Sequence record: NZ_CP118109.1
Origin: a plasmid
Reading direction: 5' to 3' (one strand)
DNA length: 64,000 nucleotides
The position numbers were made by a program, and so were the translations under genes. Shown in pieces: positions 23,572-53,156 of the stretch. The notes under the pieces were generated by a model. The model searched no databases. It saw only the letters and a program-made list of their open reading frames with translations, and was not told the origin of the DNA. How positions within the stretch are numbered: the first letter of the stretch is position 1; every line of letters begins with the position of its first letter.

Positions 23572-23601
23572 GGTCGCTAACGCTCCTGTGGCATTGTGAA
23601 T
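23572..23601 (+). repeat. conserved junction element A: GGTCGCTAACGCTCC-TGTGGCATTGTGAAT
   Basis: Shares CTAACG-N8-GGC-TT-T-GAA spacing with the copies at 36216 and 46715 and with the hairpin copies. Confidence 0.5.
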
Positions 23602-23629
23602 GTTTAACTTGAACGAGGAGGTTATCTAT

Positions 23630-23968
23630 ATGAGTAACAAATTGCTAACTGAAGGACGTAGCTTATTCGACCATAGTTTATCTAAGGAGGAAGTACGTAA
23701 TCGCAACCTAGACGTATTTGCCTTTATGATGGATATGCTTAGACTATATACAGAAAGAAGTATCTCTGGTAGTCAGCTCTGCATGCTACATGCTAGTTAC
23801 CATAGTGTGAATATGAAGTATACTATGGGCAAGAAAGAGTTCCAGTATCGTCTTGTCGTGTTGATCAATGCTGGCTTTATAGATAGAGAGACTATAGAGA
23901 AAGATGATGTGCTCTCTCCTACTGAGCTTGGTATGAATAGATATGATGCTGTATGTACTGTAGCTTAA
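23630..23968 (+). CDS. hypothetical protein, 112 aa
   Basis: GAGGAGG RBS plus ATG. Confidence 0.5.
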   Translation: MSNKLLTEGRSLFDHSLSKEEVRNRNLDVFAFMMDMLRLYTERSISGSQLCMLHASYHSVNMKYTMGKKEFQYRLVVLINAGFIDRETIEKDDVLSPTELGMNRYDAVCTVA

Positions 23969-23988
23969 CTATATAGGAGGTTAATCAT

Positions 23989-24279
23989 ATGAATCGCTAT
24001 GATGAAGACTATAGTAGAATGGAGATACGCCTTCGCAATATGGAGGCGTTCTCTGCTGTAAAGAAGATGATTGAGCATGGAGATGTAGATGAAGCACCGT
24101 TGAATACTATAGTGTCTATGTATCCTTTGTTTGAGATGGATATAGATATGCCTCTTCATGAGCTTGAGTATCGTATTCGTCTTCTGCATAATGCTGATTA
24201 TGTTTATATACGTAATGGAGCTTATGGTTCTGAGATGGTATCCATAACTGAGTTAGGATTAAGGAGATATACTTCTTAG
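23989..24279 (+). CDS. hypothetical protein, 96 aa
   Basis: TAGGAGG RBS plus ATG. Confidence 0.5.
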   Translation: MNRYDEDYSRMEIRLRNMEAFSAVKKMIEHGDVDEAPLNTIVSMYPLFEMDIDMPLHELEYRIRLLHNADYVYIRNGAYGSEMVSITELGLRRYTS

Positions 24280-24364
24280 GTATCTATAGTCTTATCTTCT
24301 ATGTGTTCTTATACTGTATATTGTTTATATAGTGAGCTATAGTATTAATGGTATGCGTCTTGGA

Positions 24365-24397
24365 TTTTTTTCTTTTTGCCGATCCTTGCGGAACGGC
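24365..24397 (+). repeat. U-rich tract plus hairpin GCCGATCC-TTGC-GGAACGGC (copy 1 of 2)
   Basis: Near-identical copy at 26560..26588. Both lie 30-45 nt upstream of gene starts. Confidence 0.45.
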
Positions 24398-24439
24398 ACT
24401 AAAACCTTTTTAAAACCCTATACATTGGAGTGGTATTCT

Positions 24440-24649
24440 ATGAAGTTTGATGTCAAATTTAAAGAACGCATTACAGGTGTTCCATTACAGCTAATTGACG
24501 CTTTTATGATATCTTCCCGCTCTGAACCTTGTATGATCTGCAAAGAACCAACTGTTTTCATTGATTACTGTTCCGAAGGACGGCTTTGTTCTGATGAATG
24601 CGATTCTGTATTCTATTCTAAGGTTGAAGAATCTGGGGGTGTCTTATGA
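24440..24649 (+). CDS. small Cys-rich protein (CxxC ... CxxxC), 69 aa
   Basis: GGAGTGG RBS plus ATG. CMICKEP...CSDECDS. Confidence 0.45.
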   Translation: MKFDVKFKERITGVPLQLIDAFMISSRSEPCMICKEPTVFIDYCSEGRLCSDECDSVFYSKVEESGGVL

Positions 24650-24825
24650 GTCCTATACTCTGGACTTCGATAGTTATCTCTTTAGCATCTATTGTCATTA
24701 ATGTATTTAACATTCTTGCCATACGCCGATCACATAAGCGTATGGATGAAGCTTACAACAGAGAGGGTCAAGCTCTTGATAATCTAAGTAGAGAGCTTGA
24801 TAAGCTTATTAAGAAAGGAAGATAG
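24646..24825 (+). CDS. small membrane-anchored protein, 59 aa (below ORF-track cutoff)
   Basis: ATGA overlap with the previous stop. N-terminal TM ILWTSIVISLASIVINVFNILAI then a charged tail. Confidence 0.4.
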   Translation: MSPILWTSIVISLASIVINVFNILAIRRSHKRMDEAYNREGQALDNLSRELDKLIKKGR

Positions 24826-24826
24826 T

Positions 24827-25024
24827 ATGAGTCAAGAGATTACCCATGAGTATGTATCAGCTGAGATAACTAGGCTGATTGGTGAATATGATTTCCCGCT
24901 GGTTGCCCTGCAAGATGTAAAGAATAGGCTTAGCGATAGTGATGATCCACACTATGCAGCACAGCAGCTACGTTATCTTAATAATCTCATTAATGCTGGT
25001 CATGCTATAAGAAAGCATCAATAG
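24827..25024 (+). CDS. hypothetical protein, 65 aa
   Basis: AAAGGAAG RBS plus ATG. Confidence 0.4.
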   Translation: MSQEITHEYVSAEITRLIGEYDFPLVALQDVKNRLSDSDDPHYAAQQLRYLNNLINAGHAIRKHQ

Positions 25025-25035
25025 GAGGTATTGTT

Positions 25036-25296
25036 ATGGGTGCTAAGCCTATAAAGCGCCATACTCTTACTAAAGACAACGTTAAACACTTCTCGCGTAT
25101 TCAGAGGACTGGCAATGTTTTGCCTCAGCCGGCTCGTATTGTTGTCGATAAAGAATACTGGGAAGATGTTGGTGGCTGGCGAGGATGGGAAACCACTCCT
25201 ATATATGATAAAGTGTTTCATGACTGGGAATATGCATACGCTGTCTATGATGAGATCCTGCGCAGAGCGGATCCTGGTAGTGTAAAAGAGCGTTAA
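25036..25296 (+). CDS. hypothetical protein, 86 aa
   Basis: TAGGAGG RBS plus ATG. Confidence 0.5.
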   Translation: MGAKPIKRHTLTKDNVKHFSRIQRTGNVLPQPARIVVDKEYWEDVGGWRGWETTPIYDKVFHDWEYAYAVYDEILRRADPGSVKER

Positions 25297-25309
25297 TGAG
25301 GTGTATATA

Positions 25310-25549
25310 ATGGAGCTTATGTCTCCTTACTTTGAACGAACTATTATTACTGCAGATCGACTGATCCGTGGCCAATTTTATTCTTTCTATTACCAAGAAC
25401 AATATTACATTGCTGTTTTCCTTAGCTCTAGACATGAAAATCAAGTTTTAACCTTTAACGCATACACTATCGATAACAAGTATTGCAGAATATCGATGAT
25501 GTTTGCGCCAGAAGAGATAGATCGATTAAGTATTTACTATAGGGAGTGA
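25310..25549 (+). CDS. MELM-N-terminus family protein 1
   Basis: Starts MELMSPYFE behind GAGGTG. Confidence 0.45.
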   Translation: MELMSPYFERTIITADRLIRGQFYSFYYQEQYYIAVFLSSRHENQVLTFNAYTIDNKYCRISMMFAPEEIDRLSIYYRE

Positions 25550-25555
25550 TATATC

Positions 25556-25792
25556 ATGGAGCTTGTTACTCCTTACCTTAGAGCTATGTTTGAATATGCT
25601 ATAGGTGATGAATATGTATTTGTCACCTTAACTAATGATTATTATCTTGGTATGATCGCGGCTGCCACCGAAGAAGGTGTCACTCTTACATTTGCCCATG
25701 TCTCCTATGGTGGTCGTGATCACATGCTTCATGAAGTTAATTCTTGCTCTATTCCACTATCTAACATAAAGGAGTACTGGGAATGGAATTAA
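25556..25792 (+). CDS. MELM-N-terminus family protein 2
   Basis: Starts MELVTPYLRAMFEYA. Confidence 0.45.
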   Translation: MELVTPYLRAMFEYAIGDEYVFVTLTNDYYLGMIAAATEEGVTLTFAHVSYGGRDHMLHEVNSCSIPLSNIKEYWEWN

Positions 25793-26091
25793 TGAATGCT
25801 TATTTAGAGAATACCGGTCCTACCTTTTCTCCGCCAATAATGAATCGCATTACATTTCAGGATGCCGACTTCTATGTAGGTGATTTTGTACGTGTGATAC
25901 ATTATCATGACATAGATTTAGAAAACAAGACTTTATCCAGGTCCTATACAACTGGAGTTATTCAAGAGATCAACGAAGATTTACTTTCTAAATACGTTGT
26001 GATTCACGATGAAAGTACTTCTAATCAACACTATATTCGAGAGTTTGACATAGTAGGTATTATGTATCCCCCATTTTGGAGTGGACCATGA
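25783..26091 (+). CDS. MELM-N-terminus family protein 3
   Basis: Starts MELMNAYLEN. Confidence 0.45.
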   Translation: MELMNAYLENTGPTFSPPIMNRITFQDADFYVGDFVRVIHYHDIDLENKTLSRSYTTGVIQEINEDLLSKYVVIHDESTSNQHYIREFDIVGIMYPPFWSGP

Positions 26092-26318
26092 TGGAGCTAA
26101 TGTCTGCCTATAAAGAGAATACTGATAAGTATTTTAATGGTGTAGTCGATGCCTATAACTATTGCTATGGTTATGTCTCCCTCTACCCTAGTGTGTATAC
26201 TGATGATCCTCAGTATAAGCTTGGTTATGAGTATGGTGAGAAGCTATATCATAGCGATAAAGAGTTAGGTATTCTATATAGTGATGATCGCTTATTTGAA
26301 TTACATGGAGGCCTATAA
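26091..26318 (+). CDS. MELM-N-terminus family protein 4
   Basis: Starts MELMSAYKEN behind TGGAGTGG. Confidence 0.45.
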   Translation: MELMSAYKENTDKYFNGVVDAYNYCYGYVSLYPSVYTDDPQYKLGYEYGEKLYHSDKELGILYSDDRLFELHGGL

Positions 26319-26557
26319 TGATCAATCAAACTAAATTCACAGTTAATGATGTTCCGCTTAAGACTAAGAAGGAGGCTGTACGTGCTTTATGTGCCACAGC
26401 CAACTTCAATTGTTTGCATATAGAAGAATTATGGTGTTACAAAGAAGTTTGTGAATTATTTAGCATTACTCCTGATGATTATTGGAATGACGAAGCAGAG
26501 CTTGATGAAGAACATCTTATGCATGCTGGTAATGATAATTGGAAGCCTCGTATTTAA
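26318..26557 (+). CDS. hypothetical protein, 79 aa
   Basis: TAATG overlap with the previous gene. Confidence 0.45.
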   Translation: MINQTKFTVNDVPLKTKKEAVRALCATANFNCLHIEELWCYKEVCELFSITPDDYWNDEAELDEEHLMHAGNDNWKPRI

Positions 26558-26559
26558 TT

Positions 26560-26588
26560 TTTTTCTTTTGCCGATCCTTCGGAACGGC
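26560..26588 (+). repeat. U-rich tract plus hairpin GCCGATCC-TTC-GGAACGGC (copy 2 of 2)
   Basis: See 24365..24397. Confidence 0.45.
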
Positions 26589-26619
26589 GCTACATACTAC
26601 ATTTTAGGAGGATACATAC

Positions 26620-26853
26620 ATGCCTGAGAAAACATACATTCCATGTGTATTAAAAAACAATAGAGATGGTCGCATTATCAACCAGTCTTTTACACCACGC
26701 CAGCTGTTAACAGATTTTTATGACGAGAACGAGCTTGCTGAAGCTATGGTTGCATCTGCTTGCAATTGTCAGCCTATTGGTGAGACTTATGATACAGACT
26801 GCAACTGTTTTGAGGAATGGGAGAATTACAGTATTGTTATAGGAATTGAGTAA
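26620..26853 (+). CDS. hypothetical Cys-containing protein, 77 aa
   Basis: AGGAGG RBS plus ATG. Confidence 0.5.
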   Translation: MPEKTYIPCVLKNNRDGRIINQSFTPRQLLTDFYDENELAEAMVASACNCQPIGETYDTDCNCFEEWENYSIVIGIE

Positions 26854-26866
26854 CTTATCGCTCTCG

Positions 26867-26896
26867 GGAGCCTAACGGCTCCGGGGGCTTTTTGAA
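26867..26896 (+). terminator. TAAC-loop hairpin element T1: GGAGCC-TAAC-GGCTCC-GGGGGC-TTTTTGAA
   Basis: 6-bp stem and conserved downstream block. Also functions plausibly as a terminator. Confidence 0.5.
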
Positions 26897-26921
26897 TTTA
26901 TACATATGGAGGTTATTTATA

Positions 26922-27365
26922 ATGCGTATACATAACGAAAACTTTGAACATGTGATTTCTATGATGTTTTATGGCTACAAAGCATCTTCACACAATCCTG
27001 AGTGCTTCAGCTCTTCTGATCTTCGTATTGAGATGTGGGCAGAAGCATGCTGTAATGACATCATCAACAAGATGCGTGATCAAGGCTATGATCCTGCTCT
27101 TATCGTACCGGTTATCAGCAAGCCTGAAATTGATTTGAAATACTATCCAGATGCTAATCCTGCTTTAAAACAAGAGCTTGATGATGAGTTTGGCGGCTTT
27201 GTGGTTAATAACGATTTATACATGCTTGGTCTTCGCGCTTGGTATGCTGATGGTCATGAATATATCTCTCAGTTTGGCACACCATGCGATGATGAGAATG
27301 ACGGTCCATTTGGTGGCGCCTTTGCTTCTGAAGGCGATTACTACAACTATGTCGGTGCCTTGTAG
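26922..27365 (+). CDS. hypothetical protein, 147 aa
   Basis: GGAGG RBS plus ATG 26922. Confidence 0.5.
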   Translation: MRIHNENFEHVISMMFYGYKASSHNPECFSSSDLRIEMWAEACCNDIINKMRDQGYDPALIVPVISKPEIDLKYYPDANPALKQELDDEFGGFVVNNDLYMLGLRAWYADGHEYISQFGTPCDDENDGPFGGAFASEGDYYNYVGAL

Positions 27366-27394
27366 GAGCCTAACGGCTCCGAGGTCTTTATGAT
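27365..27394 (+). terminator. TAAC-loop hairpin element T2: GGAGCC-TAAC-GGCTCC-GAGGTC-TTTATGAT
   Basis: Same stem as T1. Downstream block degenerate. Confidence 0.45.
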
Positions 27395-27418
27395 ATTATT
27401 ATGTTATCCGATATATAA

Positions 27419-27432
27419 TTTAACGCATTACA
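27419..27432. promoter_or_regulatory. palindrome-family copy 5: TTTAACGCATTACA
   Basis: One mismatch to consensus. 27 nt upstream of ATG 27459, followed at +7 by TAGATT. Confidence 0.4.
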
Positions 27433-27458
27433 TTTTAACTAGATTGGAGACTATACAT

Positions 27459-27863
27459 ATGAATACTATGCAAGTTGTAGAACTTTTAGATTCTATTTTA
27501 CCTCTCTACCCTGCCGCTCAGAATATCTCCCGCAGTCTTTTGATGGACATACTTGAATCAGAAGGCATCTTTATTTATGAGCCTGACTATTCAGTTACTA
27601 AAGCTAAATCTTTACTGTTTGAATACTTAGATAATACATACCGTTACAACTTTGATGCTTATGGCAATCTCGTCTCCCCTGAAAAGATTATGCATTCAGC
27701 CGCAGGTTATTATATTGGCTATGACTCTTATGATTTTGAACTTGATGTCTGCCTTCACCACGATCGTATATCTGGATACTATAAGGATATAGATAAAGCT
27801 AAGATGGCTTTACGTGTAGGAGTCCATTATATGATGCCACCTAGGTTATCTTTTTCTATGTAA
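27459..27863 (+). CDS. hypothetical protein, 134 aa
   Basis: GGAGA RBS plus ATG. Confidence 0.5.
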   Translation: MNTMQVVELLDSILPLYPAAQNISRSLLMDILESEGIFIYEPDYSVTKAKSLLFEYLDNTYRYNFDAYGNLVSPEKIMHSAAGYYIGYDSYDFELDVCLHHDRISGYYKDIDKAKMALRVGVHYMMPPRLSFSM

Positions 27864-28026
27864 TGTCTTTCATTGCCGCTCGTTATTGGGCGGCTTTTAT
27901 TATGTTCATTATTTATTTCATTACATTAATAATTTAATTAGTGAAATAAATCATTAAGCGTATTTATTATGCTAATATGATCAATGAACCGCATTTTCCG
28001 CTTATGAAAGGAGTTCTTTTAGCAAA

Positions 28027-28497
28027 ATGATTCTACATAGAAATGGTGAAGAATATCCCGTATCCTTCCTTCCTTTAACCAAAGCAGATGTCAAATTTAT
28101 GAATAAAACTGGATGGGAGCCTTCTTTTGACTGGAATATTTATTTTAACGCTCCTAAAGTAGAAGTGTATAAAATGGTTGTTACAGGTGATCCTAGTGGT
28201 ACAATACAAGGCGCCATTGCACTGGAAAAGAAAGAAGATCATGTTTTTATGCTTTTAATCGAAAGCTCACCCCGTAATAGGGATCCGATTAATAAACAGT
28301 TTTCTCATATTGGAGCTCATTTATTTGCATTTTGCTGTAAACGAAGCATGGAACTAGGTCACGAAGGTTTTATTGGCCTGAAAGCTAAGACTAAACTGGT
28401 CAATTATTTCTCATCTTTAGGTGCGGTTCCTATAAGTGGCCAAGATATGATTGTATCTGAGACTACCGCTCAGCATTTGGTTAATGTATACTTATAA
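28027..28497 (+). CDS. possible GNAT-fold acetyltransferase, 156 aa
   Basis: Pattern GAIALEKKEDHVFMLLIESSP ... HIGAHLFAFCCKRSMELGHEGFIGLKA ... LVNYFSSLGA resembles a GNAT beta4-alphaC core. Confidence 0.35.
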   Translation: MILHRNGEEYPVSFLPLTKADVKFMNKTGWEPSFDWNIYFNAPKVEVYKMVVTGDPSGTIQGAIALEKKEDHVFMLLIESSPRNRDPINKQFSHIGAHLFAFCCKRSMELGHEGFIGLKAKTKLVNYFSSLGAVPISGQDMIVSETTAQHLVNVYL

Positions 28498-28511
28498 GAG
28501 AGGTGATTAAC

Positions 28512-28694
28512 ATGGACAAAGAAATACTTGATCGACGCTTCAAAGAATTAGAAAAAGCCGCTGATCGACACACTAACGGTCATTATGTTGAACAAACATT
28601 GCCTGGAGTTGACACTTCTAATGTCAGTGCCTTTATCAGAAATAGAAAAGAAATTAATAAACGAATACAAGCAACGATTAAAGCTCGCCAATAG
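28512..28694 (+). CDS. hypothetical small protein
   Basis: ATG 28512 after AGGTGA. GTG 28503 is an alternative start. Confidence 0.4.
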   Translation: MDKEILDRRFKELEKAADRHTNGHYVEQTLPGVDTSNVSAFIRNRKEINKRIQATIKARQ

Positions 28695-28729
28695 GTGAGC
28701 TTTTTTATTTCATACAAGGACGTGGTCGA

Positions 28730-28984
28730 ATGGATTTAATGTTTGGTTATGATCGCCGCTATGATAGTCTTCTCTCCCCTGGCAAGATCAACACGGTTAC
28801 TGTTATCAATGGAACTCAATATACTGGTGAATGTTTTATCGACCCTAACCTCCCTTATGTTGTCCGCATGAATAATGCTGAAAAGCGTACTGCTGAAGGT
28901 GAGATTACTTTCGATGTGAATTGCCAGTTTTCTTATGAATCAATCATTCGTGTGGACTCTGCGCTTATCAGCGCTGCCGTATAG
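28730..28984 (+). CDS. hypothetical protein, N-terminus MDLMFGY (MELM-like)
   Basis: ORF 84 aa. Confidence 0.4.
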   Translation: MDLMFGYDRRYDSLLSPGKINTVTVINGTQYTGECFIDPNLPYVVRMNNAEKRTAEGEITFDVNCQFSYESIIRVDSALISAAV

Positions 28985-28995
28985 TAAAGGAGCAT

Positions 28996-29427
28996 ATGAT
29001 ATTGGAAATACGAAATGGGAATCCAATTATAGGACAGCGTGTTGACGTTTATGTGAATCTGAATAAGAAAGGTGTATTCAGTATTCTTGATCGTCAGCCT
29101 AAGAGTCCTACATATAATAAAGTATTGGCTTATGCAGAGCGAGTCACCATTAGGTCGGCTCGTTCTCGTATTATTCAGAGCAAATATGATTCTATTCAAG
29201 AGAAGAAACAACGAGCTGTTTGTGCTGTCTTCTCCGGAACTCTTGTTGCTATTGATTCAGACAAGTCTGCAGATCTTAATGTTCAAGTAAGATATAATCC
29301 TTACCGTTCTCGAGAATTTCATACTCTTGATGGATCCGTAATTGATCAAGCTGAGCTTATTCATTTTGAGGATCAATGCGGTTGGATTAGCACTGCCAAT
29401 CAGAATGATTCTATGCTATTGTTTTAA
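28996..29427 (+). CDS. hypothetical protein, 143 aa
   Basis: GGAGCATATG context. Confidence 0.5.
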   Translation: MILEIRNGNPIIGQRVDVYVNLNKKGVFSILDRQPKSPTYNKVLAYAERVTIRSARSRIIQSKYDSIQEKKQRAVCAVFSGTLVAIDSDKSADLNVQVRYNPYRSREFHTLDGSVIDQAELIHFEDQCGWISTANQNDSMLLF

Positions 29428-29462
29428 AGGTAAATTATTCTATTTTGAGGGGACGGATTCTT

Positions 29463-29828
29463 TTGACAGTAAGCAATTTAGATTTAGATTATTTCCTGCA
29501 TGACTTGATTGATGAATACCTAAATCATGGTCTAACTTCCCACGATGGAGCTACTGTAATAACTGTTGATCCAATTCATAAGTATTTCGAAGAAGTTGTA
29601 AATAAGCTCATTCCATTCATAGAATATGACATCATAGATCGCCTGGATTATATTGTTTTGACCAGAAAAGATAATGGTGATGATGAGATTGTTATTTTCG
29701 AGAAGCGCAATATGTTCAGAGCATTTCCAGACTCGCCTGCCAAATTTAATTATAAATTATTAAGCGTTCCAATATATCGATATGAGATATCAACAGTAAC
29801 TGTCGATATTGGCGAGATGGATGAATAG
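29463..29828 (+). CDS. hypothetical protein (start uncertain: TTG 29445 or TTG 29463)
   Basis: No in-frame ATG. GAGGGGA precedes 29463. Confidence 0.35.
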   Translation: MTVSNLDLDYFLHDLIDEYLNHGLTSHDGATVITVDPIHKYFEEVVNKLIPFIEYDIIDRLDYIVLTRKDNGDDEIVIFEKRNMFRAFPDSPAKFNYKLLSVPIYRYEISTVTVDIGEMDE

Positions 29829-29838
29829 TTTTACCTTC

Positions 29839-29866
29839 GGCTGCCACTTAGGCAGTCTTTTTTTAT
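29839..29866 (+). terminator. rho-independent terminator
   Basis: GGCTGCC-actta-GGCAGTC followed by TTTTTTT. Confidence 0.55.
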
Positions 29867-29891
29867 TTCTAATTCAAAGGAGATTTTCTAC

Positions 29892-30125
29892 ATGCAACCA
29901 CCTATTCTACACCCAGTAAACAAAGTTCTCATGATTCCAGGACGACTATACAACATCAAGGACACCAAAGAAAGAAACATTCAGGCGTCTTTTTCTAAAC
30001 GAGAAGGTGAAAACTTTCACTTTGATTATGCTATCTCTTTCGATTTAGCTTCTGGGACTACTCTTCTCATTGATCTTCTTCTTCATGAGGATGAAATTAT
30101 CTCTTGTGAGCAATATCATTTCTAG
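29892..30125 (+). CDS. hypothetical protein, 77 aa
   Basis: AAAGGAG RBS plus ATG. Confidence 0.45.
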   Translation: MQPPILHPVNKVLMIPGRLYNIKDTKERNIQASFSKREGENFHFDYAISFDLASGTTLLIDLLLHEDEIISCEQYHF

Positions 30126-30155
30126 GCTATCTAACGATAGCAAGGGCTTTATGAG
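30126..30155 (+). terminator. TAAC-loop hairpin element T5: GCTATC-TAAC-GATAGC-AAGGGC-TTTATGAG, followed by a second plain terminator hairpin 30155..30181
   Basis: Perfect 6-bp stem, TAAC loop, GGGCTTTATGA block. Then GGACTG-tctatata-CAGTCC-TTTTT. Confidence 0.5.
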
Positions 30156-30211
30156 GACTGTCTATATAGCAGTCCTTTTTCTTATTCAATCATAAACTGG
30201 AGGTTTTACCT

Positions 30212-30466
30212 ATGAAAACTAAATCACTTGCTATCGCATTCTTTATCACTCTCTGTACTACTATTGGCATTATTGCATGGCAGCCTGATCCTGCATATGT
30301 TGACTATGTTGTTGATTCTGGCGATACACTTTGGAGTATTGCTGAGCAAAGTGACATTGATACAGATAAACGTGCCATCGTCGCCTATATGATTGATAAA
30401 AGCAACTTACATAATCCAGGTGATCTTAAGCCAGGTATGATCGTTCGTATACCAATGCAAAAATAA
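30212..30466 (+). CDS. LysM-domain protein with N-terminal signal/anchor
   Basis: YVVDSGDTLWSIAEQ...LKPGMIVRIP is a LysM signature. N-terminal hydrophobic segment LAIAFFITLCTTIGIIAW. Confidence 0.7.
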   Translation: MKTKSLAIAFFITLCTTIGIIAWQPDPAYVDYVVDSGDTLWSIAEQSDIDTDKRAIVAYMIDKSNLHNPGDLKPGMIVRIPMQK

Positions 30467-30543
30467 GGGGGGCCTCTCCCCTATTCTGTCTGCGGTAATC
30501 AAACCGTACTGATGAGCTGTACTAGCAGCGAAACAGAATATGA

Positions 30544-30762
30544 TTGGAGGTTATAATCATAGATATAAACCAGACGTATAATACAATTGCTGTTATCATA
30601 TTCGAGCTGTTTCTTTTCCTATGCTTTATCATCGCTATTCCCGCTCTCAGAAATCCTAAAATCCCGCTAAAGCGCAAGTTTGAGGTTATAGGAGCAATTA
30701 TACTTATGATGTTCTTTATTTATTCGGCTTATCTAATGGAGCTATCTGAATCCGCTCAATAG
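30544..30762 (+). CDS. small membrane protein (start uncertain)
   Basis: Two hydrophobic helices. Only a TTG start at 30544. Confidence 0.3.
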   Translation: MEVIIIDINQTYNTIAVIIFELFLFLCFIIAIPALRNPKIPLKRKFEVIGAIILMMFFIYSAYLMELSESAQ

Positions 30763-30870
30763 TATTTCATATGATTTATAAGATATTTCATATGATTTAA
30801 GTCTTATATCATATGCGATAACAGTTATATCGTATGATATATTATATAATTCCTATTTCATATGATATAT
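30760..30870. repeat. array of ATTTCATATGAT / TATCATATG direct repeats (5 or more copies)
   Basis: Copies at 30765, 30785, 30855. Variants at 30806 and 30826. Palindromic CATATG core. Confidence 0.5.
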
Positions 30871-31016
30871 TAAATACTTATACGATGCGATTAGGTAATT
30901 AAGCTTGGCTCTTTCATTTATCAGGACGTGTTTTCGTACTATTGATTAGTACTATTAATATGCTTAACACAATTGTATAATTCTAGCAAACTACTAGAAG
31001 GAGGAATTATATGTAG

Positions 31017-31253
31017 ATGCCAAAAGATCCTAAGATTCAGAAGGAAATTGAAAGAATAAATAACGCCTACGATTTAATACTTGGTATGATAGGTGGCGAG
31101 CTTTATCAGCGAGGACTCGATTTTGAAATTCGCGAGTATCTTCTCGGAGTTCCTATGCTAGTTGTTTTTAATGAAGAAGGCACAGTAATAGATCGAAAGT
31201 TTGAATACGAGTTTGATGAATACTATAACGAGTTAGAATCAACCACAAATTAA
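31017..31253 (+). CDS. hypothetical protein, 78 aa
   Basis: GGAGG RBS plus ATG. Confidence 0.5.
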   Translation: MPKDPKIQKEIERINNAYDLILGMIGGELYQRGLDFEIREYLLGVPMLVVFNEEGTVIDRKFEYEFDEYYNELESTTN

Positions 31254-31303
31254 ACCTAAGCCTGTTCCTTAATGGAGCGGGCTTTTTTATTAGGAGGAAG
31301 ACT

Positions 31304-31450
31304 TATGAAAAATGTATTTATTTTCGACGATCCGGAGTTCCAGCAGATGCACTGGGATTTCGATCCGACTGGCTATGAGCAAGACATTCATACATACAAA
31401 CCATGTGGATGCATAGATGACCATTTCTGTTTAGAATGCGTCCCTTTCTA
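31304..31450 (+). CDS. small Cys-rich peptide, 48 aa (not in ORF track)
   Basis: AGGAGG RBS 6 nt upstream. Translation MKNVFIFDDPEFQQMHWDFDPTGYEQDIHTYKPCGCIDDHFCLECVPF. Confidence 0.4.
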
Positions 31451-31462
31451 AGGAGACTAATT

Positions 31463-31735
31463 ATGTTTAATTACACTAGCTTAGATGATCACATCTATTG
31501 TTTACAGCGCACCCCTCTCCCCGCCCAGCTCAGTATTGATTTAATCAGAGCTGATACATTCTATCTTCAAGATAAGGATGACGAATGCCGTCAAATCCTA
31601 GGTGAGATCGAACAAAAGTGTGCTGAACTAAACATCAAGATTTATCGTCCGATGCCGATCAGCTTTAAAGCAGCCGACTGGTATCGACAACAAGCTTTAG
31701 AAGCATATCAAACTCAAATAGATTGGAGCGAATAA
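31463..31735 (+). CDS. hypothetical protein
   Basis: TAAGGAG RBS plus ATG (MFNYTSLDD). Confidence 0.45.
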   Translation: MFNYTSLDDHIYCLQRTPLPAQLSIDLIRADTFYLQDKDDECRQILGEIEQKCAELNIKIYRPMPISFKAADWYRQQALEAYQTQIDWSE

Positions 31736-31736
31736 A

Positions 31737-31988
31737 ATGTTAACTGCTGTCGCACAAGAGAAAATGACCGATGATCAAGCCAAACAATACCTTGATAATA
31801 TGTCCGCTTATATCGAGAATGCTTCATTTGATATCGAAACTGAAAGTAATTTGCTTACTCATTGGGTGTCCGAACAGATCAAAGATATTCCTGAAAGCGC
31901 ACTCAAATTAATGCTCGTTGACTTATTTGTCAAAAATCAGCATCTCAAACAAGAATGCATCAGACAATCAGCATCCCTCTTTTTCTAA
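31737..31988 (+). CDS. hypothetical protein, 83 aa
   Basis: Adjacent ORF with 1-nt gap. Confidence 0.45.
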   Translation: MLTAVAQEKMTDDQAKQYLDNMSAYIENASFDIETESNLLTHWVSEQIKDIPESALKLMLVDLFVKNQHLKQECIRQSASLFF

Positions 31989-32084
31989 GTCGGCTTGGCG
32001 ACTATAAATAGGCTTTTGGCCAAGCGCGGGCTCCCAACTCGGGAGTATAGCAGTACCATACTATATTTAAAGGAGTGTCATATC

Positions 32085-32294
32085 ATGGATAATAAACAGA
32101 TCATCAGATATTTTATGAAGCCTATTCAGAATAACTTTGCTTTGGTTGTCGCTACTCGGAGTAAAGGAGATATCATTATCGAGGAAGGCCCTAAGCCTTT
32201 CGTGAAAGGGAAGTATACTTTCTATTCCCGTGATCGCCAGGCTCTCGAAAATAAAGTAGAGGAGGTGCTGTCATTAGAGACTGCTCACTCCTAA
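32085..32294 (+). CDS. hypothetical protein
   Basis: AAAGGAG RBS plus ATG (MDNKQIIRYF). The upstream 90 nt carries two hairpins (GCTTGGC/GCCAAGC and CTCCC/GGGAG). Confidence 0.45.
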   Translation: MDNKQIIRYFMKPIQNNFALVVATRSKGDIIIEEGPKPFVKGKYTFYSRDRQALENKVEEVLSLETAHS

Positions 32295-32691
32295 AGATTC
32301 GTTTCCCTATATGGGATAACTAAACCATTGCATAGGGTTTTAAAGGTTTTATGCTCTGCCTCATTTGGACAGACCTCTCCCAAAGGCCGATTATTTATGT
32401 ATCTTACTAATGAATGTTACTCTCAATAGAATGAACTGACGATTCTATACGATAGCTCATTCTATTAAAGGTAGCTGCCGTTTTTGCTCCACCTTTTTAT
32501 TTTTCTATCTACATCAGAAGTAAGCTAACTCTTGAATTGAATGTAATCTATCTATTCTTAAGTAAGCTTGCTTCTATATATAAAGAATTACCGGAAAACA
32601 TAGGGTATATACACCCAATCCTAAAACGTTCACAAATTGTACACATACTGTTCGTGTAATGTTCTATTCCAGTGGAGGGAGGCTAACTAAA

Positions 32692-32811
32692 TTGACTGTT
32701 TTCGGTATCGTGCTTGGTATCTATGTAGCATGCCATTTAATCGGTGACTATCGCAAAATCCGTCGTTTTGTACTAAAATGTAAGGCAATACAACAAAAAT
32801 ATATGAATTGA
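32692..32811 (+). CDS. 39-aa hydrophobic/basic peptide (type I toxin-like) with TTG start
   Basis: GGAGGGAGG RBS 9 nt before TTG. Translation LTVFGIVLGIYVACHLIGDYRKIRRFVLKCKAIQQKYMN. Preceded by a 400-bp non-coding region. Confidence 0.35.
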   Translation: MTVFGIVLGIYVACHLIGDYRKIRRFVLKCKAIQQKYMN

Positions 32812-32825
32812 GGAGACATTTTTCG

Positions 32826-33353
32826 ATGTATCTTGTACAATACAGAGACGACACCAACTATAGCGAACTTAAAGTGCAGTACTGCAAGGATCCATTAGAC
32901 GTAGAGAAGATGTGGAATCTGGATGATTCGGCCATATCTATCGTGGATGTTATTGAAGTGGATGAATACTTCAGACTTGTTGTAGCCGGGTCACGCGACT
33001 TCGATGATTACGCACTGCTTAGCAGACATTTGGATCATCTCTTGCAACACAAGAAGAACATCGTGATTGTTTCAGGAAATGCTATAGGTGCAGACATGCT
33101 AGGAGAGCGATATGCCAATGAAAGAGGATACTTTATAGATACATACATCCCTAATTGGCGCCCTAGGGGTCCGAGAGGTCCTGTTGATCGTTCTGCTGGA
33201 CATAGGCGAAATGCTGATATGGCCGATAATGGCGATGCTCTTGTGGCCTTCTGGGATAGCATTAGCAAAGGAACAGCAGGCATGATTAATATCGCTAAGA
33301 ATAAAGGATTACAGGTTCGTGTAATACATTACAATAAAGAAGGTGTCGTATGA
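32826..33353 (+). CDS. DUF2493-like / SLOG-superfamily Rossmann protein
   Basis: LVVAGSRDFDDY and IVIVSGNAIGADMLGERYA motifs. GAGGAGA RBS plus ATG 32826. Confidence 0.5.
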   Translation: MYLVQYRDDTNYSELKVQYCKDPLDVEKMWNLDDSAISIVDVIEVDEYFRLVVAGSRDFDDYALLSRHLDHLLQHKKNIVIVSGNAIGADMLGERYANERGYFIDTYIPNWRPRGPRGPVDRSAGHRRNADMADNGDALVAFWDSISKGTAGMINIAKNKGLQVRVIHYNKEGVV

Positions 33354-33835
33354 ATAACAACCTTAAAGAATGGCTGAGATCACGCCCTTCGGGCTATCCT
33401 GAACTTTCTCATGATTTCCACGTTAAATTCCAAGCTGGTCTTGGAATATTCGCTACATATGTATCAGAAGATTTCTTTGATATTCAAGAGCAGCCAATGG
33501 ATCGAATGGATGTTTCTAATCAAGATGGATATTATTATTCTATCCCTTACTTTCATGGTGATTCGTTTTCTTCACACAGTGGCGAAATACCTCTACTTTA
33601 TGTACTTAGAGTCAAAGATCGTGGGTTTTTCTACCCGCTTCGATTCGACTTTAATGCGACAGTAGTCGAGCGTGATCGTGTCGATTTTTGGATCAAGGTC
33701 TATGATCAGACAGGTTCTCGTACTACGAGTCGAGAACTGGCGTATCATGAGAAGGGTGTAAATTATACGATGATACCCGACCATGACAAAATGAAGCTTT
33801 CTGACTTTATTAAGGAGGTGGAGCCTGGTGGATGA
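33350..33835 (+). CDS. hypothetical protein, 161 aa
   Basis: ATGA overlap with the previous gene. Confidence 0.5.
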   Translation: MNNNLKEWLRSRPSGYPELSHDFHVKFQAGLGIFATYVSEDFFDIQEQPMDRMDVSNQDGYYYSIPYFHGDSFSSHSGEIPLLYVLRVKDRGFFYPLRFDFNATVVERDRVDFWIKVYDQTGSRTTSRELAYHEKGVNYTMIPDHDKMKLSDFIKEVEPGG

Positions 33836-34052: not shown

Positions 34053-34082
34053 GCAGTCTAACGACTGCGGGGGCTTTTTGAA
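34053..34082 (+). terminator. TAAC-loop hairpin element T3: GCAGTC-TAAC-GACTGC-GGGGGC-TTTTTGAAG
   Basis: Stop codon sits in the loop region. Covarying stem. Confidence 0.5.
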
Positions 34083-34118
34083 GTTAAATAATAAAACATA
34101 CTTTGGAGGAATTTAATC

Positions 34119-34481: not shown

Positions 34482-34587
34482 TTCGTCTTGCCGGGGAAGC
34501 AACCCCTGGCTCCATGCCGTGATGGACTCTAAATAAGACACGGGTAAGAGATTCTAGTTGCTACTAAATACTATATATGAAATACGA

Positions 34588-35290: not shown

Positions 35291-35303
35291 GAAGGAGGAT
35301 ATC

Positions 35304-36213: not shown

Positions 36214-36215
36214 TC

Positions 36216-36246
36216 GTCGCTAACGCTCCCATGGCCTTATAGAATT
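36216..36246 (+). repeat. conserved junction element B: GTCGCTAACGCTCC-CATGGCCTTATAGAAT
   Basis: Identical 14-mer to copies A and C. Confidence 0.5.
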
Positions 36247-46539: not shown

Positions 46540-46715
46540 GAAATGTGTTTGTTTTGCCAGACGGCACCGAACAGCACTTCATGTATCCTGTTGAACGAGA
46601 TATAGAAATTGGTGATCGCTTCGCTGCACATTTTAGCGATAATTCAGATCACATACTTACTTTAACTTCTATTGTTCATGAGGAAAAACGTATTCTCTAC
46701 AAGCTTTCGTATTAG
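46536..46715 (+). CDS. hypothetical protein, 59 aa (not in ORF track)
   Basis: ATGA overlap. Translation MRNVFVLPDGTEQHFMYPVERDIEIGDRFAAHFSDNSDHILTLTSIVHEEKRILYKLSY. Confidence 0.35.
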   Translation: MRNVFVLPDGTEQHFMYPVERDIEIGDRFAAHFSDNSDHILTLTSIVHEEKRILYKLSY

Positions 46716-46743
46716 GTCGCTAACGCTCCATAGGCTTTTTGAA
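46715..46743 (+). repeat. conserved junction element C: GGTCGCTAACGCTCC-ATAGGCTTTTTGAA
   Basis: Closest of the stem-less copies to the hairpin-type downstream block. Confidence 0.5.
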
Positions 46744-46779: not shown

Positions 46780-47544
46780 ATGTCTAACTATCAAAATAAT
46801 GGTCAAGGTCAACAAGGAAATAACAATCAGGGGAACAGCATGCCTTCCCACGCAGAAATCGAGCTCATCGTTAATTTGGCTACTGTAAAGGATCCAAACA
46901 ATCAAAACGGCGATCGCGTACATGCTTATGCAAGAGCTGTTGGAGATTCTAAAGTTGCTAATGCAAGTGTAGCTGTTAATCACCAAGGTCAATCTGAACC
47001 GGATTATTGGAATCTTGAAGTTTGGGCGAACGGCGACCGTGACGGTAACTTTAAATTTCTGATGGAACACTGCTATAAGGGTCGCCAACTCTTCATCAAA
47101 GGTATTCCAATGCTGAAGAAAAACACAGATGGCCGTATGTTTCCGACCATCAAAGTTAGCAAAATCCAAGGTCTGGGTTCTAGCAATAACAATCAATCTG
47201 GTAATGGATCTAATCAACAACAAGGCGGCTTTGGTCAACAACAGCAACAAGGCGGAGGATTCCAGCAACAGGGTTATCAGCAACAGCCGCAACAAGGGTT
47301 TGGCCAGCAACAAGCTGGAGGCTTCCAACAGCAACAGCCTCAGCAAGGTGGGTTCCAACAGCAACCGCAACAGCCTCAACAAGGCGCTCCTGCTTGGGGT
47401 AATCAACAAGGATTTAACCAGCAACAAAATGGATTTGGTCAGCAACAACCTGCAGGATTTGGCGCCCCACAACAAGGAGGCATGCCTCAAAACCAGCCGC
47501 CACAAGGTAATTTCCAACCACCATTCGGCGCACCGCAACGCTAA
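46780..47544 (+). CDS. SSB-like OB-fold protein with long Gln/Gly-rich tail
   Basis: GAGGAGG RBS. N-terminal roughly 120 aa OB-like. Roughly 110-aa QQGGFGQQQ repeat tail. Tail ends FGAPQR rather than an acidic DDDIPF tip. Confidence 0.45.
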   Translation: MSNYQNNGQGQQGNNNQGNSMPSHAEIELIVNLATVKDPNNQNGDRVHAYARAVGDSKVANASVAVNHQGQSEPDYWNLEVWANGDRDGNFKFLMEHCYKGRQLFIKGIPMLKKNTDGRMFPTIKVSKIQGLGSSNNNQSGNGSNQQQGGFGQQQQQGGGFQQQGYQQQPQQGFGQQQAGGFQQQQPQQGGFQQQPQQPQQGAPAWGNQQGFNQQQNGFGQQQPAGFGAPQQGGMPQNQPPQGNFQPPFGAPQR

Positions 47545-50651: not shown

Positions 50652-50690
50652 TGTAACGCATTATATCTTTTCACTTTGTAACGTGTTATA
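50652..50690. promoter_or_regulatory. two degenerate palindrome-family copies (7a TGTAACGCATTATA, 7b TGTAACGTGTTATA) plus a third weak copy at about 50711
   Basis: Tandem operator-like arrangement about 80-115 nt upstream of GTG 50768. Confidence 0.45.
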
Positions 50691-50767
50691 CTTTATCGTA
50701 ACAAGTGAAATTGTATTGCGTTGCTTTGTGCCAAAAGGCGATGCAAAATTGCGAGGAGGATGAAGTC

Positions 50768-51406
50768 GTGTCTGAAAATTATCTGGAAAGTCGCCTGACG
50801 AAGAATGAAATGTTAGTTTATGAGTATATAAAGCTTAAAACAGAAGAACAGGGATCCGTACAAGAATCTATGATTCAAATGGCTGAAAGCATTAGCGAAA
50901 TGTTTAAGGATCGCATCTCTGTCCGAAAAGTTCATTCCGTGGGCGGCGCAAGTTCCAAAAGCAAAAAAGGTTCTGCCATTAGCACCGCAACGATTTCACG
51001 CGCGGTTAATCGTTTGAAAGCTGAAGGCATAATTGATATTAGACAGTCGCCTGATAGCACGACACCACACGAGTATGTCTTCTTAGGCTTGCCTAATGAA
51101 GAAGAACAAGTGTCTGAAATACTCAATCTGGCTGACAAATTGAACAGTCATTTACAGCGGTTTGAAAAGCTTCTAGTGAATCGTGATAAGGAGATTCATC
51201 AGTTGAAAACGGAGAAGAAGCAGCTGTATGTTCAGCTCGATGCAAAGAATGAGGAGATCCGCGCTTTGAACGAATCATTAGCTTCGCTGCAGAATGAGTT
51301 GAAACAAATCAACACAGATGGAGTGAATCCGTTTAATGACGGTCAATTCGTAGGAATCACGGACATTGGTGATGGCGTTCGAGCCTATCTCGTAAAGACA
51401 CACTAA
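50768..51406 (+). CDS. putative DNA-binding regulator (winged-helix N-terminus plus coiled coil)
   Basis: GAGGAGGA RBS plus GTG 50768 (alternative ATG 50741). EMLVYEYIKLKTEE...ISRAVNRLKAEGIIDI is wHTH-like. C-terminal heptad coiled coil. Confidence 0.45.
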   Translation: MSENYLESRLTKNEMLVYEYIKLKTEEQGSVQESMIQMAESISEMFKDRISVRKVHSVGGASSKSKKGSAISTATISRAVNRLKAEGIIDIRQSPDSTTPHEYVFLGLPNEEEQVSEILNLADKLNSHLQRFEKLLVNRDKEIHQLKTEKKQLYVQLDAKNEEIRALNESLASLQNELKQINTDGVNPFNDGQFVGITDIGDGVRAYLVKTH

Positions 51407-51428
51407 GTTCGAGGGGGAACACGTCCAC

Positions 51429-52034
51429 ATGCTTAATCTTTTGACCAAATCAAATCGCACATCCGATACTTTTGCAAGATGGGTTGCAAGTGCCGTTATG
51501 AGCGGAAAAAGCAGCACGATTGAGAATTTTAAGGAGCAATTAATGGTTCAATTTTCAAGCAATCCATCCTTTAGCGGTTTAGTGAAGGAGCGGATTGAGG
51601 ATGAATTTTGCGATAACCTTTCTATGATGCTGGATAATTATGAGAGACCTTGTTTGGATGAATCATATTACCGCATCGCTATGGTCAAAGGTAAGTTATT
51701 ACATGTTGAAGTGGACTGCGAATTTTGTTGCAGAGTTGGAGTGACTTCGCATCAATTCCTTGGCAGGGAGCTTTCAAAAGAGTTTATGCCTTTAGATAAC
51801 CTGGAACATGTGCGGGATTGCTATTTCCGCGCATGGAACGGGGAAACAGTAGACTTTATCAGTCGCGGCAACACGGGAGAGTCTTATACAGTTAAGCTGA
51901 GCCCGGTCTATGATGATAATGGTGCTCTTTGCTTTGTCGAAGCTATTTGCCGTTTCACGAACCCGATCCCTATTGATCAGAGTGTTCGTGATGAAATGGG
52001 AGAGTTTCAGCCTACTCAATATGTATTATGGTAA
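51429..52034 (+). CDS. PAS-like sensor-fold protein candidate, 201 aa
   Basis: C-terminal half HVEVDCEFCCRVGVTSHQFLGRELSKEF...RDCYFRAWNGETVDFIS...GESYTVKLSPVYDDNGAL.FVEAICRFT resembles a PAS core. Confidence 0.35.
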   Translation: MLNLLTKSNRTSDTFARWVASAVMSGKSSTIENFKEQLMVQFSSNPSFSGLVKERIEDEFCDNLSMMLDNYERPCLDESYYRIAMVKGKLLHVEVDCEFCCRVGVTSHQFLGRELSKEFMPLDNLEHVRDCYFRAWNGETVDFISRGNTGESYTVKLSPVYDDNGALCFVEAICRFTNPIPIDQSVRDEMGEFQPTQYVLW

Positions 52035-52055
52035 TGTAGTTAGGAGTGATTACAT

Positions 52056-52520
52056 TTGGCTATTATCGACATCATATTGCGTGAAAATTTCATGGCATGG
52101 AATCGTTTAACCTTTGAGTATGAACAGGAAACAAAAAACTTAAGGGTACCGTCTGAAAATACAGCAGAGACACTGCTTGATTTTAACGTCAGACTGGATG
52201 AACTTAACACAAGAGCGGTCTATGACTTCGGCAGAATCCGTAAATTAAAAGATATTATGGATAGTCTGCTCGAAAGTGTTTTGAAAGATTTGTATGCCGG
52301 TCCGAATGACGCTGCAAGGAAAGCTGGCGGAATCCAACATGCCAGGGCGTTTCCAGTAACTGGATATCCTTTTGAAGCCGTAAATCTTTATGAGCTTCAA
52401 GACAATATCTTAAGCAATTATTACTCAATGCAATCTACAGTTAGAGCTCTTGAAGGCAAGATGGGCGCAAAGATTACAAACAATGCGCTGCTTAAAAATG
52501 AACTGGCCTCAGCAATGTAG
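52056..52520 (+). CDS. hypothetical protein, 154 aa
   Basis: AGGAG RBS plus ATG. Confidence 0.5.
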   Translation: MAIIDIILRENFMAWNRLTFEYEQETKNLRVPSENTAETLLDFNVRLDELNTRAVYDFGRIRKLKDIMDSLLESVLKDLYAGPNDAARKAGGIQHARAFPVTGYPFEAVNLYELQDNILSNYYSMQSTVRALEGKMGAKITNNALLKNELASAM

Positions 52521-52583
52521 ACTCGAAAAGAAAGCGGTCTGGTCCTCCAGTCCGCTATTTTGATATATGCAAGGAGGAGCAAT

Positions 52584-53135
52584 ATGTCTGAATGTGAGCA
52601 CGCCTCTGAGTGTGAAAACGTGGACAAGTCCTGCCGCCGATGTTTCAACTACAACATGTTTCGTCCTAAGAAAGAAGTACGGCGGCTTGGGCAGCGCTCC
52701 GGTGCCAAAAAGAGCGATAAAGAAGGAATGGCATTTGAAGAGCGCGGTACGAAGAAATACAACCAGGCGATAAGACAAGCAAAAGACGTAGCGCGTCGTC
52801 AGTTCGCATCAGGCGCTCTGTATCACTCTCTAGGAGACATGATTACCGAAGAGGATCTTACAGCTGCTCTGGCCGAATTTAAAGAGCGTGGAACGCTAAG
52901 CAAGTCCGGAGAGAAGCAAATTACGATCAAGAAAGAGTGGCTTGATAAGCTGGAAGAAGAAGCGCGACTAATGAATCGTGACTTCTACTTCCTTCCGTTC
53001 ACATTCAAAGGTCAAAATACCGATTATGTCGTTATGACATATGATCGTATGCTTGCATATATTCAGACGATTCAAATACTGAATCAGAATTTGCGTCATC
53101 TTCAGGATCAACTTAATGCAGCGCAGGCCGACTAA
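52584..53135 (+). CDS. hypothetical protein with N-terminal C-x5-C-x6-C-x2-C zinc finger
   Basis: AAGGAGGAG RBS plus ATG 52584. MSECEHASECENVDKSCRRC. Confidence 0.5.
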   Translation: MSECEHASECENVDKSCRRCFNYNMFRPKKEVRRLGQRSGAKKSDKEGMAFEERGTKKYNQAIRQAKDVARRQFASGALYHSLGDMITEEDLTAALAEFKERGTLSKSGEKQITIKKEWLDKLEEEARLMNRDFYFLPFTFKGQNTDYVVMTYDRMLAYIQTIQILNQNLRHLQDQLNAAQAD

Positions 53136-53156
53136 CGCCGGCGGGGGCTTTTTGAT
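53127..53156 (+). terminator. TAAC-loop hairpin element T4: GCCGAC-TAAC-GCCGGC-GGGGGC-TTTTTGAT
   Basis: Stop codon TAA lies in the loop. One mismatch in the stem. Confidence 0.5.

Follow-up and report, generated by a model that had tools for sequence, protein, structure and literature searches.

What is the function of a family of small hairpins that recurs at gene junctions in a large uncultured phage? The DNA in question is a stretch of 64,000 nucleotides (nt) from the sequence record NZ_CP118109.1 (hereafter the window), which is part of a phage of about 190 kb, and between positions 23572 and 53156 its plus strand carries eight copies (E1 to E8) of a unit of about 30 nt that combines a short stem, a conserved loop and a conserved downstream box. 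The unit is a real, conserved, structured and previously undescribed cis-element, and its most likely role is that of a new, phage-specific signal that sets the start of transcripts, whether as a promoter or as a site where RNA is cut. A promoter or a processing site had been suggested in a first-pass annotation of this DNA; both stay the best two readings.

A covariance model was built on the eight window copies together with three copies from a relative. When the whole window was searched with this model, on both strands and with the filters off, exactly the eight sites of the first-pass annotation were retrieved, all on the plus strand and all at the places given there, with scores of 32.8-43.3 bits, the next-best match reaching 10.4 bits. 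In the window copies the stem has six positions, the loop TAAC is closed by a C-G pair, the spacer has 5-6 nt and ends in GGC (GTC in E3), and the box reads TT(T)N(T/A)GA(A/T). E2 (26867..26896, GGAGCC-TAAC-GGCTCC GGGGGC TTTTTGAA, 39.9 bits) and E3 (27365..27394, GGAGCC-TAAC-GGCTCC GAGGTC TTTATGAT, 37.6 bits) are perfect hairpins with the same stem, E4 (30126..30155, GCTATC-TAAC-GATAGC AAGGGC TTTATGAG, 36.3 bits) and E5 (34053..34082, GCAGTC-TAAC-GACTGC GGGGGC TTTTTGAA, 41.8 bits) have other stems, and the stem of E8 (53127..53156, GCCGAC-TAAC-GCCGGC GGGGGC TTTTTGAT, 39.5 bits) contains one A.C mismatch. No paralogy was found between the genes after E2 and E3; downstream of E2 there is a Shine-Dalgarno sequence, GGAGG, at 26908 and an ATG at 26922.

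The remaining copies, E1 (23572..23600, GGTCGC-TAAC-GCTCCT GTGGC ATTGTGAA, 39.6 bits), E6 (36215..36244, CGTCGC-TAAC-GCTCCC ATGGC CTTATAGAA, 32.8 bits) and E7 (46715..46743, GGTCGC-TAAC-GCTCCA TAGGC TTTTTGAA, 43.3 bits), had been regarded as stemless, but they were found to have the same 6-position stem, interrupted by a tandem mismatch, and a spacer that is one base shorter. The 14-mer GTCGCTAACGCTCC occurs three times in the window, where 0.14 occurrences would be expected by chance. The downstream block that had also been called conserved stood only together with the hairpin: allowing three mismatches, GGGGGCTTTTTGAA by itself was found six times in the window against an expectation of 5.8, that is, not above chance, and it is significant solely in combination with the hairpin. 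A search of the whole window against Rfam at the gathering threshold matched a pistol ribozyme alone, and a search of 23400-36400 at E ≤ 1 gave only this pistol ribozyme and a hammerhead ribozyme, neither overlapping an element.

The phage stands apart from those in the databases. A 21-kb query gave no megablast match among 50,697 phage records and tblastn of its candidate polymerase (described below) against the phage database gave just partial matches of 21-27% identity to Enterocloster phages; by these sequence comparisons, no isolated or studied phage is closely related. Related contigs span 190-213 kb, one of them being a 198-kb contig within a Virgibacillus salexigens assembly, and Bacillales are the likely hosts of the clade. 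The polymerase neighbourhood of each relative was retrieved and then searched with the covariance model, and about 23 further copies were found across five related uncultured phages of about 200 kb, all on the gene strand. Five are in a 117-kb IMG/VR contig (L001 and L002) with a polymerase that is 80% identical (hereafter the 80% relative), five in L008 (45%), six in L009 (44%), two in L015 (47%) and five in L138 (43%), which was the single useful new genome among the listed matches of a polymerase-profile metagenome scan. No convincing copies were found in relatives with polymerases of 31-36% identity (L010, L012, L013 and L139-L141), which gave two hairpins with the loop TATC only; motif copies were not detected in the 198-kb contig of the Virgibacillus salexigens assembly, and a similar motif was not found in the SPbeta YonO region. 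Exact-pattern scans of viral contigs returned nothing for the hairpin plus GGGGGC, and for GGTCGCTAACGCTCC they returned the 117-kb relative and L005, the latter being rejected as a chance coding hit. An exact-protein look-up for sequence beyond the window gave a 3.3-kb contig only.

Of the five copies in the 80% relative, three occupy sites orthologous to those of window copies. The ortholog of E1 (L001 14679) is identical over 30 nt despite diverged flanks, that of E7 (L002 8780) has the loop TGAC and lies, as E7 does, upstream of the SSB gene, and that of E8 (L002 15259) keeps the A.C mismatch. In E8 the upstream gene ends on the TAA of the loop, and in the E8 ortholog the loop, here TGAC, again contains the stop codon; such a coincidence of the loop TAA or TGA with the upstream stop codon is seen in several relatives.

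The compensating changes in the stems that were claimed from the window copies were borne out by the larger set. Across the window and the relatives there are 12 distinct perfect stems, those new in the relatives including GCAGCC/GGCTGC, GGCGC/GCGCC, GTGGGC/GCCCAC, GTAGAC/GTCTAC, ATTTGC/GCAAAT, GCTCCC/GGGAGC, GCATGC/GCATGC and GCATAC/GTATGC. Among 23 copies from the window and the relatives, changes on both sides are seen at four of the six stem pairs (26 cells); the observed covariation score was not attained in any of 500 shuffles, and slid-register controls gave one fifth of it. Given that the stems covary, a folded single strand, of either DNA or RNA, is under selection. The loop consensus is T-N-A-Y (TAAC in 23 copies, TGAC in three, and TGAT, TCAT, TAAT and TTAT in one each), and all loops have 4 nt except for a single 3-nt loop, TAC, at L001 21703. 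Over the window and the relatives the box reads (G/T)(G/T)C-NT(T/G)N(C/T)GA(A/T), and on the 3' side conservation stops abruptly at Y-G-A-(A/T).

The inner five stem positions of the 22 distinct arm pairs comprise 89 Watson-Crick pairs and not a single G.T pair on the sense strand, and the non-Watson-Crick positions, read on the same strand, are 19 pyrimidine.pyrimidine, one A.C and one purine.purine. On the template strand the pyrimidine mismatches read G.A or A.G, and the A.C of E8 reads G.T. The interrupted form, GGTCGC-TAAC-GCTCC, has two pairs (C-G and G-C) by the loop, followed by a tandem C.T/T.C mismatch and then by one or two G-C pairs; it recurs in five phages as GGTCGCTAACGCTCC or its core TCGCTAACGCT, and its mismatch becomes a tandem 5'-GA-3'/3'-AG-5' on the template strand. 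Ahead of gene 27457-27863 the window has the perfect hairpin E3, but the junction in front of the orthologous gene of the 80% relative has the interrupted form (L001 18053), and since the two forms replace each other at an orthologous junction they can be taken as functionally interchangeable. Calculated nearest-neighbour energies favoured the template strand only slightly.

The position of the element was examined relative to the genes on both sides. In the window, 6-7 of the eight copies abut the upstream stop codon, with E2 located 13 nt past its stop, and the open reading frame (ORF) listed before E1 looks non-coding. In L008, L009 and L015 the upstream ORF mostly ends 40-200 nt away (full range +8 to -199 nt), and the distance from the hairpin start to the next start codon is 48-66 nt in most copies. 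The overlap with the upstream stop codon had been claimed for all eight sites; it describes most window copies but is not a conserved anchor. Nor did the next start codon lie 30-60 nt away throughout, as had been stated, since in the window it is found about 53-94 nt from the hairpin start. Given that the upstream distance is variable and the distance to the start codon steady, the element belongs to the downstream gene, and from this comparison the abutment to the upstream stop is a by-product of how densely the genes of the window phage are packed.

About 12 canonical intrinsic terminators are located on the plus strand between 23 and 54 kb, and their arrangement relative to the elements is recurrent. 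Units of an element, one short gene and a strong terminator are formed in the window by E3 (terminator 27875..27894, canonical intrinsic, with an 8-bp stem of which six pairs are G-C, followed by TTTTATTAT), E5 (gene 34119-34481, terminator 34591), E6 (gene 36268-36549, terminator-like site 36585) and E8 (terminator 53939), and in the relatives at L009 14410, 15565 and 17646 and at L008 15883; at L008 14234 and 16470 there are two short genes between the element and the terminator. In the window, L001, L008, L015 and L138 an element heads the first gene cluster past the polymerase gene and a terminator, after 0.5-1 kb of non-coding DNA. In the window this copy is E1, which lies at the end of a non-coding stretch of about 530 nt that follows the terminator at 23013. 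No good sigma-A-like promoter was found when these operon-head regions were scanned in the window, L001, L008 and L015; good host-type promoters are present elsewhere in the window (e.g. a 12/12 match at 49987). At L009 17646 and 21788 the element directly abuts the U-tract of the upstream terminator. Taken together, the context favours a signal that generates 5' ends.

Two further features of these regions were observed. The non-coding stretch before E1 (23045-23570; L001 14100-14678) shares blocks with the 80% relative, e.g. TTCGTATATCATATGCTA...GGTGAACCC.CATCCGAAAATTT, and judging from this sequence a non-coding RNA may be encoded there, or the stretch may be regulatory. In the 44-45% relatives the C-rich boxes CACRTATCCCCTT and CTCCCCGCCCC are found 20-55 nt upstream of several elements, at variable distance (L008 14185-14200 and 15835-15850; L009 around 14350, 15530 and 19925).

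A candidate phage RNA polymerase, which the first-pass annotation had supposed to exist, was indeed identified. The first large gene on the plus strand (19360..22992, 1210 amino acids) encodes a protein with DNDGD at residue 793 of the long ORF; the ORF list had prepended 270 nt (19087-19359) that look non-coding. Its homologs are 31-80% identical and several of them match Pfam PF05183, the eukaryotic-type RNA-dependent RNA polymerase (RdRP) family, GGADxDGD is invariant in 13 homologs, and the homolog profile weakly matches plant RDR2 structures (E = 0.005), including the RNPxxxxGE motif. These features indicate a two-barrel single-chain polymerase of the same kind as YonO and crAss gp66. All five element-bearing relatives encode such an RdRP-like polymerase (two-barrel, DxDGD) of 1210 amino acids, and the motif co-occurs with RdRP-like proteins that are at least 43% identical. 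No T7-like polymerase was detected in Pfam and PHROGs scans of the tested window ORFs. Just upstream of the polymerase gene, at 19263-19312, there are repeated palindromes of the type CCCTATATAGG, and TATAGG arrays similar to these are found near elements in L001 and L015.

We favour, with a probability of roughly 0.4, the reading that the element is a hairpin-type promoter for the RdRP-like polymerase, by a logic like that of phage N4; that it acts in DNA, that it serves as a start site and that this enzyme reads it are all inferred. By this model a short hairpin extruded from the DNA would, together with the box C-TTT(A/T)Y-GA(A/T), position the polymerase; the loop of the template-strand hairpin would be 5'-R-T-N-A-3', usually GTTA, and transcription would start on the conserved G of Y-G-A, which lies about 11-12 nt downstream of the stem foot. 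The resulting leader would have 25-40 nt and carry the Shine-Dalgarno sequence. A promoter is favoured because copies head operons that have no host-type promoter, because elements directly follow terminators, because stem pairing is strictly Watson-Crick and such mismatches as occur are benign on the template strand alone, and because conservation ends sharply at pyrimidine-G-A, as would be expected at +1/+2. The RdRP-like polymerase would be the natural reader because two of its relatives, gp66 of phage phi14:2 and QDE-1, have a preference for single-stranded templates, with far higher activity on single-stranded than on duplex DNA; a promoter motif is not known for gp66 (bioRxiv 10.1101/2020.03.07.982082), and the promoter of YonO was left undefined (PMC5467207). 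It is possible, though less likely than not, that the element represents the first promoter class for single-chain two-barrel phage polymerases of the QDE-1/YonO/gp66 type, defined by an extruded template hairpin, the loop GTTA, an optional tandem G.A and a start box.

Several observations weigh against a promoter of this kind. The GGTCGCTAACGCTCC form is the most conserved one and yet folds weakly on either strand (-1 to -3 kcal/mol by nearest-neighbour calculation), and given this weak predicted fold its extrusion from duplex DNA would be hard. A strong terminator immediately follows two copies, namely E4, where a canonical terminator occupies 30153-30177, and L009 20073, where it lies at 20105, both loci having the layout element, terminator and LysM gene; for a promoter this arrangement would be sensible only with a polymerase that is insensitive to intrinsic terminators or with a tiny RNA as the product. 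Just upstream of L009 14410 an extended -10-like sequence, TGATATATT, was noted by eye, so that this copy at least could sit in a leader made by the host polymerase. The phage polymerase might, by analogy with YonO (PMC5467207), serve the late genes instead, and the late genes in the window carry no elements. Finally, ribozymes, whose action is certainly in RNA, occupy the same type of junction, and by context alone a role at the RNA level is therefore likewise possible.

Such a role is the content of the strongest rival reading, in which the element is a processing or leader site in polycistronic transcripts made by the host polymerase. The C(UNAY)G hairpin and the single-stranded box would serve as the recognition signal for an endoribonuclease of phage or host origin or for some other RNA-binding protein, and a cut near Y-G-A would provide the downstream cistron with a 5' end of its own and leave the hairpin as a protective 3' end of the upstream cistron. 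The phage does carry ribozymes at equivalent junctions. A pistol ribozyme (Rfam RF02679; 31988-32052, plus strand, 47.3 bits, above the gathering score) is located at a gene junction and has an ortholog at L001 23978-24045, and a hammerhead type III-like ribozyme (30483-30539, plus strand, 42.7 bits against a gathering score of 48.5, E = 1e-6), with CUGAUGAG and CGAAAC cores, lies between the terminator at 30466 and the next ribosome-binding site, in the order terminator, ribozyme, Shine-Dalgarno sequence and gene. Ribozymes are found in the relatives too, for instance a hammerhead above the gathering score at L009 8612-8666. In addition, the strong plus-strand terminators at 28680, 29839, 30153 and 43716 are followed by the next ribosome-binding site within 25-40 nt, which leaves no room for a promoter, and the genes downstream therefore need read-through or a terminator-insensitive polymerase. 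Together with the ribozymes, these promoterless terminators show that read-through and cleavage are clearly part of gene expression in this phage, and they imply that read-through transcripts matter. The strand of the element is always that of its genes, and the layout of element, gene and terminator would equally suit trimming to monocistronic mRNAs.

Against processing stands the stem itself: there are no G.U pairs among the 89 stem pairs, and the mismatches that are tolerated (Y.Y and A.C) weaken a hairpin in sense-strand RNA. The copies at operon heads have no recognisable upstream promoter from which they could be transcribed, no RNase except RNase H was found among the 77 ORFs scanned with Pfam, though proteins of unknown function abound, and no Rfam family is matched by the element. 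Self-cleaving ribozymes of the hammerhead and pistol types and the RNase III sites of T7 share its niche at phage gene junctions, and in this genome the pistol and the hammerhead-like ribozyme come after a stop codon or a terminator and ahead of the following ribosome-binding site, but a single 6-bp hairpin is too small for a known ribozyme and its helix too short for RNase III. On balance, we regard processing as a possible but tentative reading.

An antitermination site of the nut or rrn type, at which a boxB-like hairpin and a boxA-like box load factors on the host RNA polymerase, appears improbable. It would account for the alternation of elements with terminators (five of the eight window copies have a terminator within one junction), for the conserved locus at which E4 and L009 20073 directly precede terminators, and for the many terminators with no promoter behind them. 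The nut sites of lambdoid phages and the rrn antiterminators likewise combine a small hairpin, specific in its loop, with a conserved U-rich linear box only a few bases off, upstream of intrinsic terminators, the hairpin preceding the box in rrn nut-like sites (PMC8632103), and the 16S-23S spacer of Priestia megaterium has a hairpin followed by TGTTCTTTGAAAACT, which was verified as a widespread Firmicutes boxA. However, the element box differs from this boxA at 3-4 of 12 positions. Matches to boxA with up to three mismatches number 117 in the window against 107 expected and include only E7 among the elements; the resemblance is at chance level, and mimicry of boxA appears unlikely. Anchoring to downstream start codons is not required by antitermination sites and is poorly explained by them, two copies (L009 17646 and 21788) directly follow terminators, and a density of at least eight sites per 30 kb is far above that of known systems. 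The Pfam scan of the 77 ORFs revealed no N-, Q- or NusG-like protein, no promoter was found upstream of the operon-head copies that were scanned, and the association between elements and terminators was marginal by a rough count (p ~0.03-0.1).

It is very unlikely that the element acts as an intrinsic terminator or attenuator of unusual design whose copies arose by duplication. The best window copies do have a G+C-rich hairpin followed by a T-run at a gene junction, as intrinsic terminators have, and a terminator scan detects weak versions at 26877 and at L009 23448. Between the stem and the T-run, however, there are 5-6 nt of a G-rich, non-U spacer, whereas the U-tract of an intrinsic terminator begins within 0-2 nt of its hairpin, copies in the relatives lack a U-tract altogether (TTTACGA, ATGTCGA and ATGGTGA), canonical terminators adjoin several copies (after the element at window 30153 and L009 20105, before it at L009 17646 and 21788), and the anchoring is to the next gene and not to the previous stop. 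The view of the first-pass annotation that these are not plain terminators thus proved correct, and its alternative of a duplicated moron boundary fails: simple duplication is excluded because the stems differ between copies, and orthologous sites are conserved in phages of 43-80% protein identity. An extension of the stem in which the G-rich spacer pairs with upstream sequence was considered and rejected, as it works for E2 only (GCTCTC with GGGGGC). A sigma-A promoter was likewise rejected, there being no consistent -35/-10 pair at a spacing of 16-18 nt in or around the element, and the box can serve as a host -35 in E3 only (ATGATA-18-TATAAT). A mobile or selfish palindromic repeat, similar to repetitive extragenic palindromes or miniature inverted-repeat transposable elements and with no role in gene expression, would be short, intergenic and repeated as the element is, but it can hardly explain a single orientation throughout, stems that differ while loop and box are conserved, junctions kept across phages of 43-80% protein identity with the two forms exchanging in place, and the lack of any transposase in the Pfam scan of the window ORFs.

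The proposed hairpin promoter has its closest known counterpart in N4, in which the promoter hairpin has variable stem bases and conserved loop bases (PMC4496689). The early promoters of N4, used by its virion RNA polymerase, have a short hairpin of 5-7 bp, compared with 5-6 bp here, and in both systems the stem bases vary provided that pairing is kept while the loop and flank are conserved. In both, a T-run lies between the hairpin and the start (here a proposed start) on the non-template strand, the template-strand loop can close with a purine.A pair (PMC4496689), several copies head early-type genes, and the phage itself encodes a single-chain polymerase. In the N4 class supercoiling and SSB drive extrusion of the hairpin, and transcription begins on its template-strand form; for the present element the lack of G.T pairs on the sense strand and the reading of the mismatches as G.A or G.T on the template strand give indirect hints at most. 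There are, however, clear differences. In N4 the loop has 3 nt, its centre is at -11 and the stem ends at -5/-4; the loop described here has 4 nt, and the stem foot would be about 11-12 nt away from the proposed start. The polymerase of N4 is a T7-like domain in a virion protein of 3500 amino acids, whereas the only candidate here is a 1210-amino-acid RdRP-like enzyme. The three N4 promoters lie at one end of the genome, whereas here at least eight copies are spread over 30 kb, and a frequent, conserved form of the present element has an interrupted stem. Since both the geometry and the enzyme family differ, N4 serves as an analogy and the element is not a member of that class.

The genome around the elements is organised in two parts, with head, portal and terminase genes on the minus strand at 1-18 kb of the window and, from 18.4 kb on, many small genes on the plus strand followed by genes for replication, recombination and nucleotide metabolism. 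Pfam matches among the plus-strand ORFs include ThiF and a prokaryotic E2 (ubiquitin-like conjugation), a Tad2-like anti-defence domain, a MerR regulator, a YAcAr/SLOG domain, RNase H, UDG and a LysM/3D cell-wall protein, and the SSB (46780-47544) has a long Q/G-rich tail. A 14-bp palindrome, TGTAAYGCRTTACA, occurs in intergenic positions by host-type -10 boxes on both strands (window 14743, 18305, 45094 and 54091, degenerate near 6351, 27420 and 60861; L010 19017 and L012 9533); it is kept even in distant relatives where the hairpin element was not detected, and judged by its sequence and setting, a phage regulator probably uses it as an operator. Direct repeats of TATTTCATATGAT, at least three in number and iteron-like in appearance, are located at 30762-30880 in a 250-nt non-coding stretch, and with a similar sequence following the orthologous gene in L001 they may mark an origin or an operator array.

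YonO and crAss gp66, kin of the RdRPs of eukaryotic RNA interference, are known to transcribe DNA, and their promoters were left open (PMC5467207; bioRxiv 10.1101/2020.03.07.982082). The motif described here travels with an RdRP-like polymerase through a clade of uncultured phages of about 200 kb. If it is a promoter, it would represent a second, independent invention of hairpin promoters, apart from the T7-like system of N4, and a promoter built on a template-strand hairpin would explain the preference of this polymerase family for single-stranded templates. If it is a processing site, it would be a new protein-dependent RNA cleavage signal that acts alongside ribozymes. In either case the motif is useful for annotating transcription units in this group of phages.

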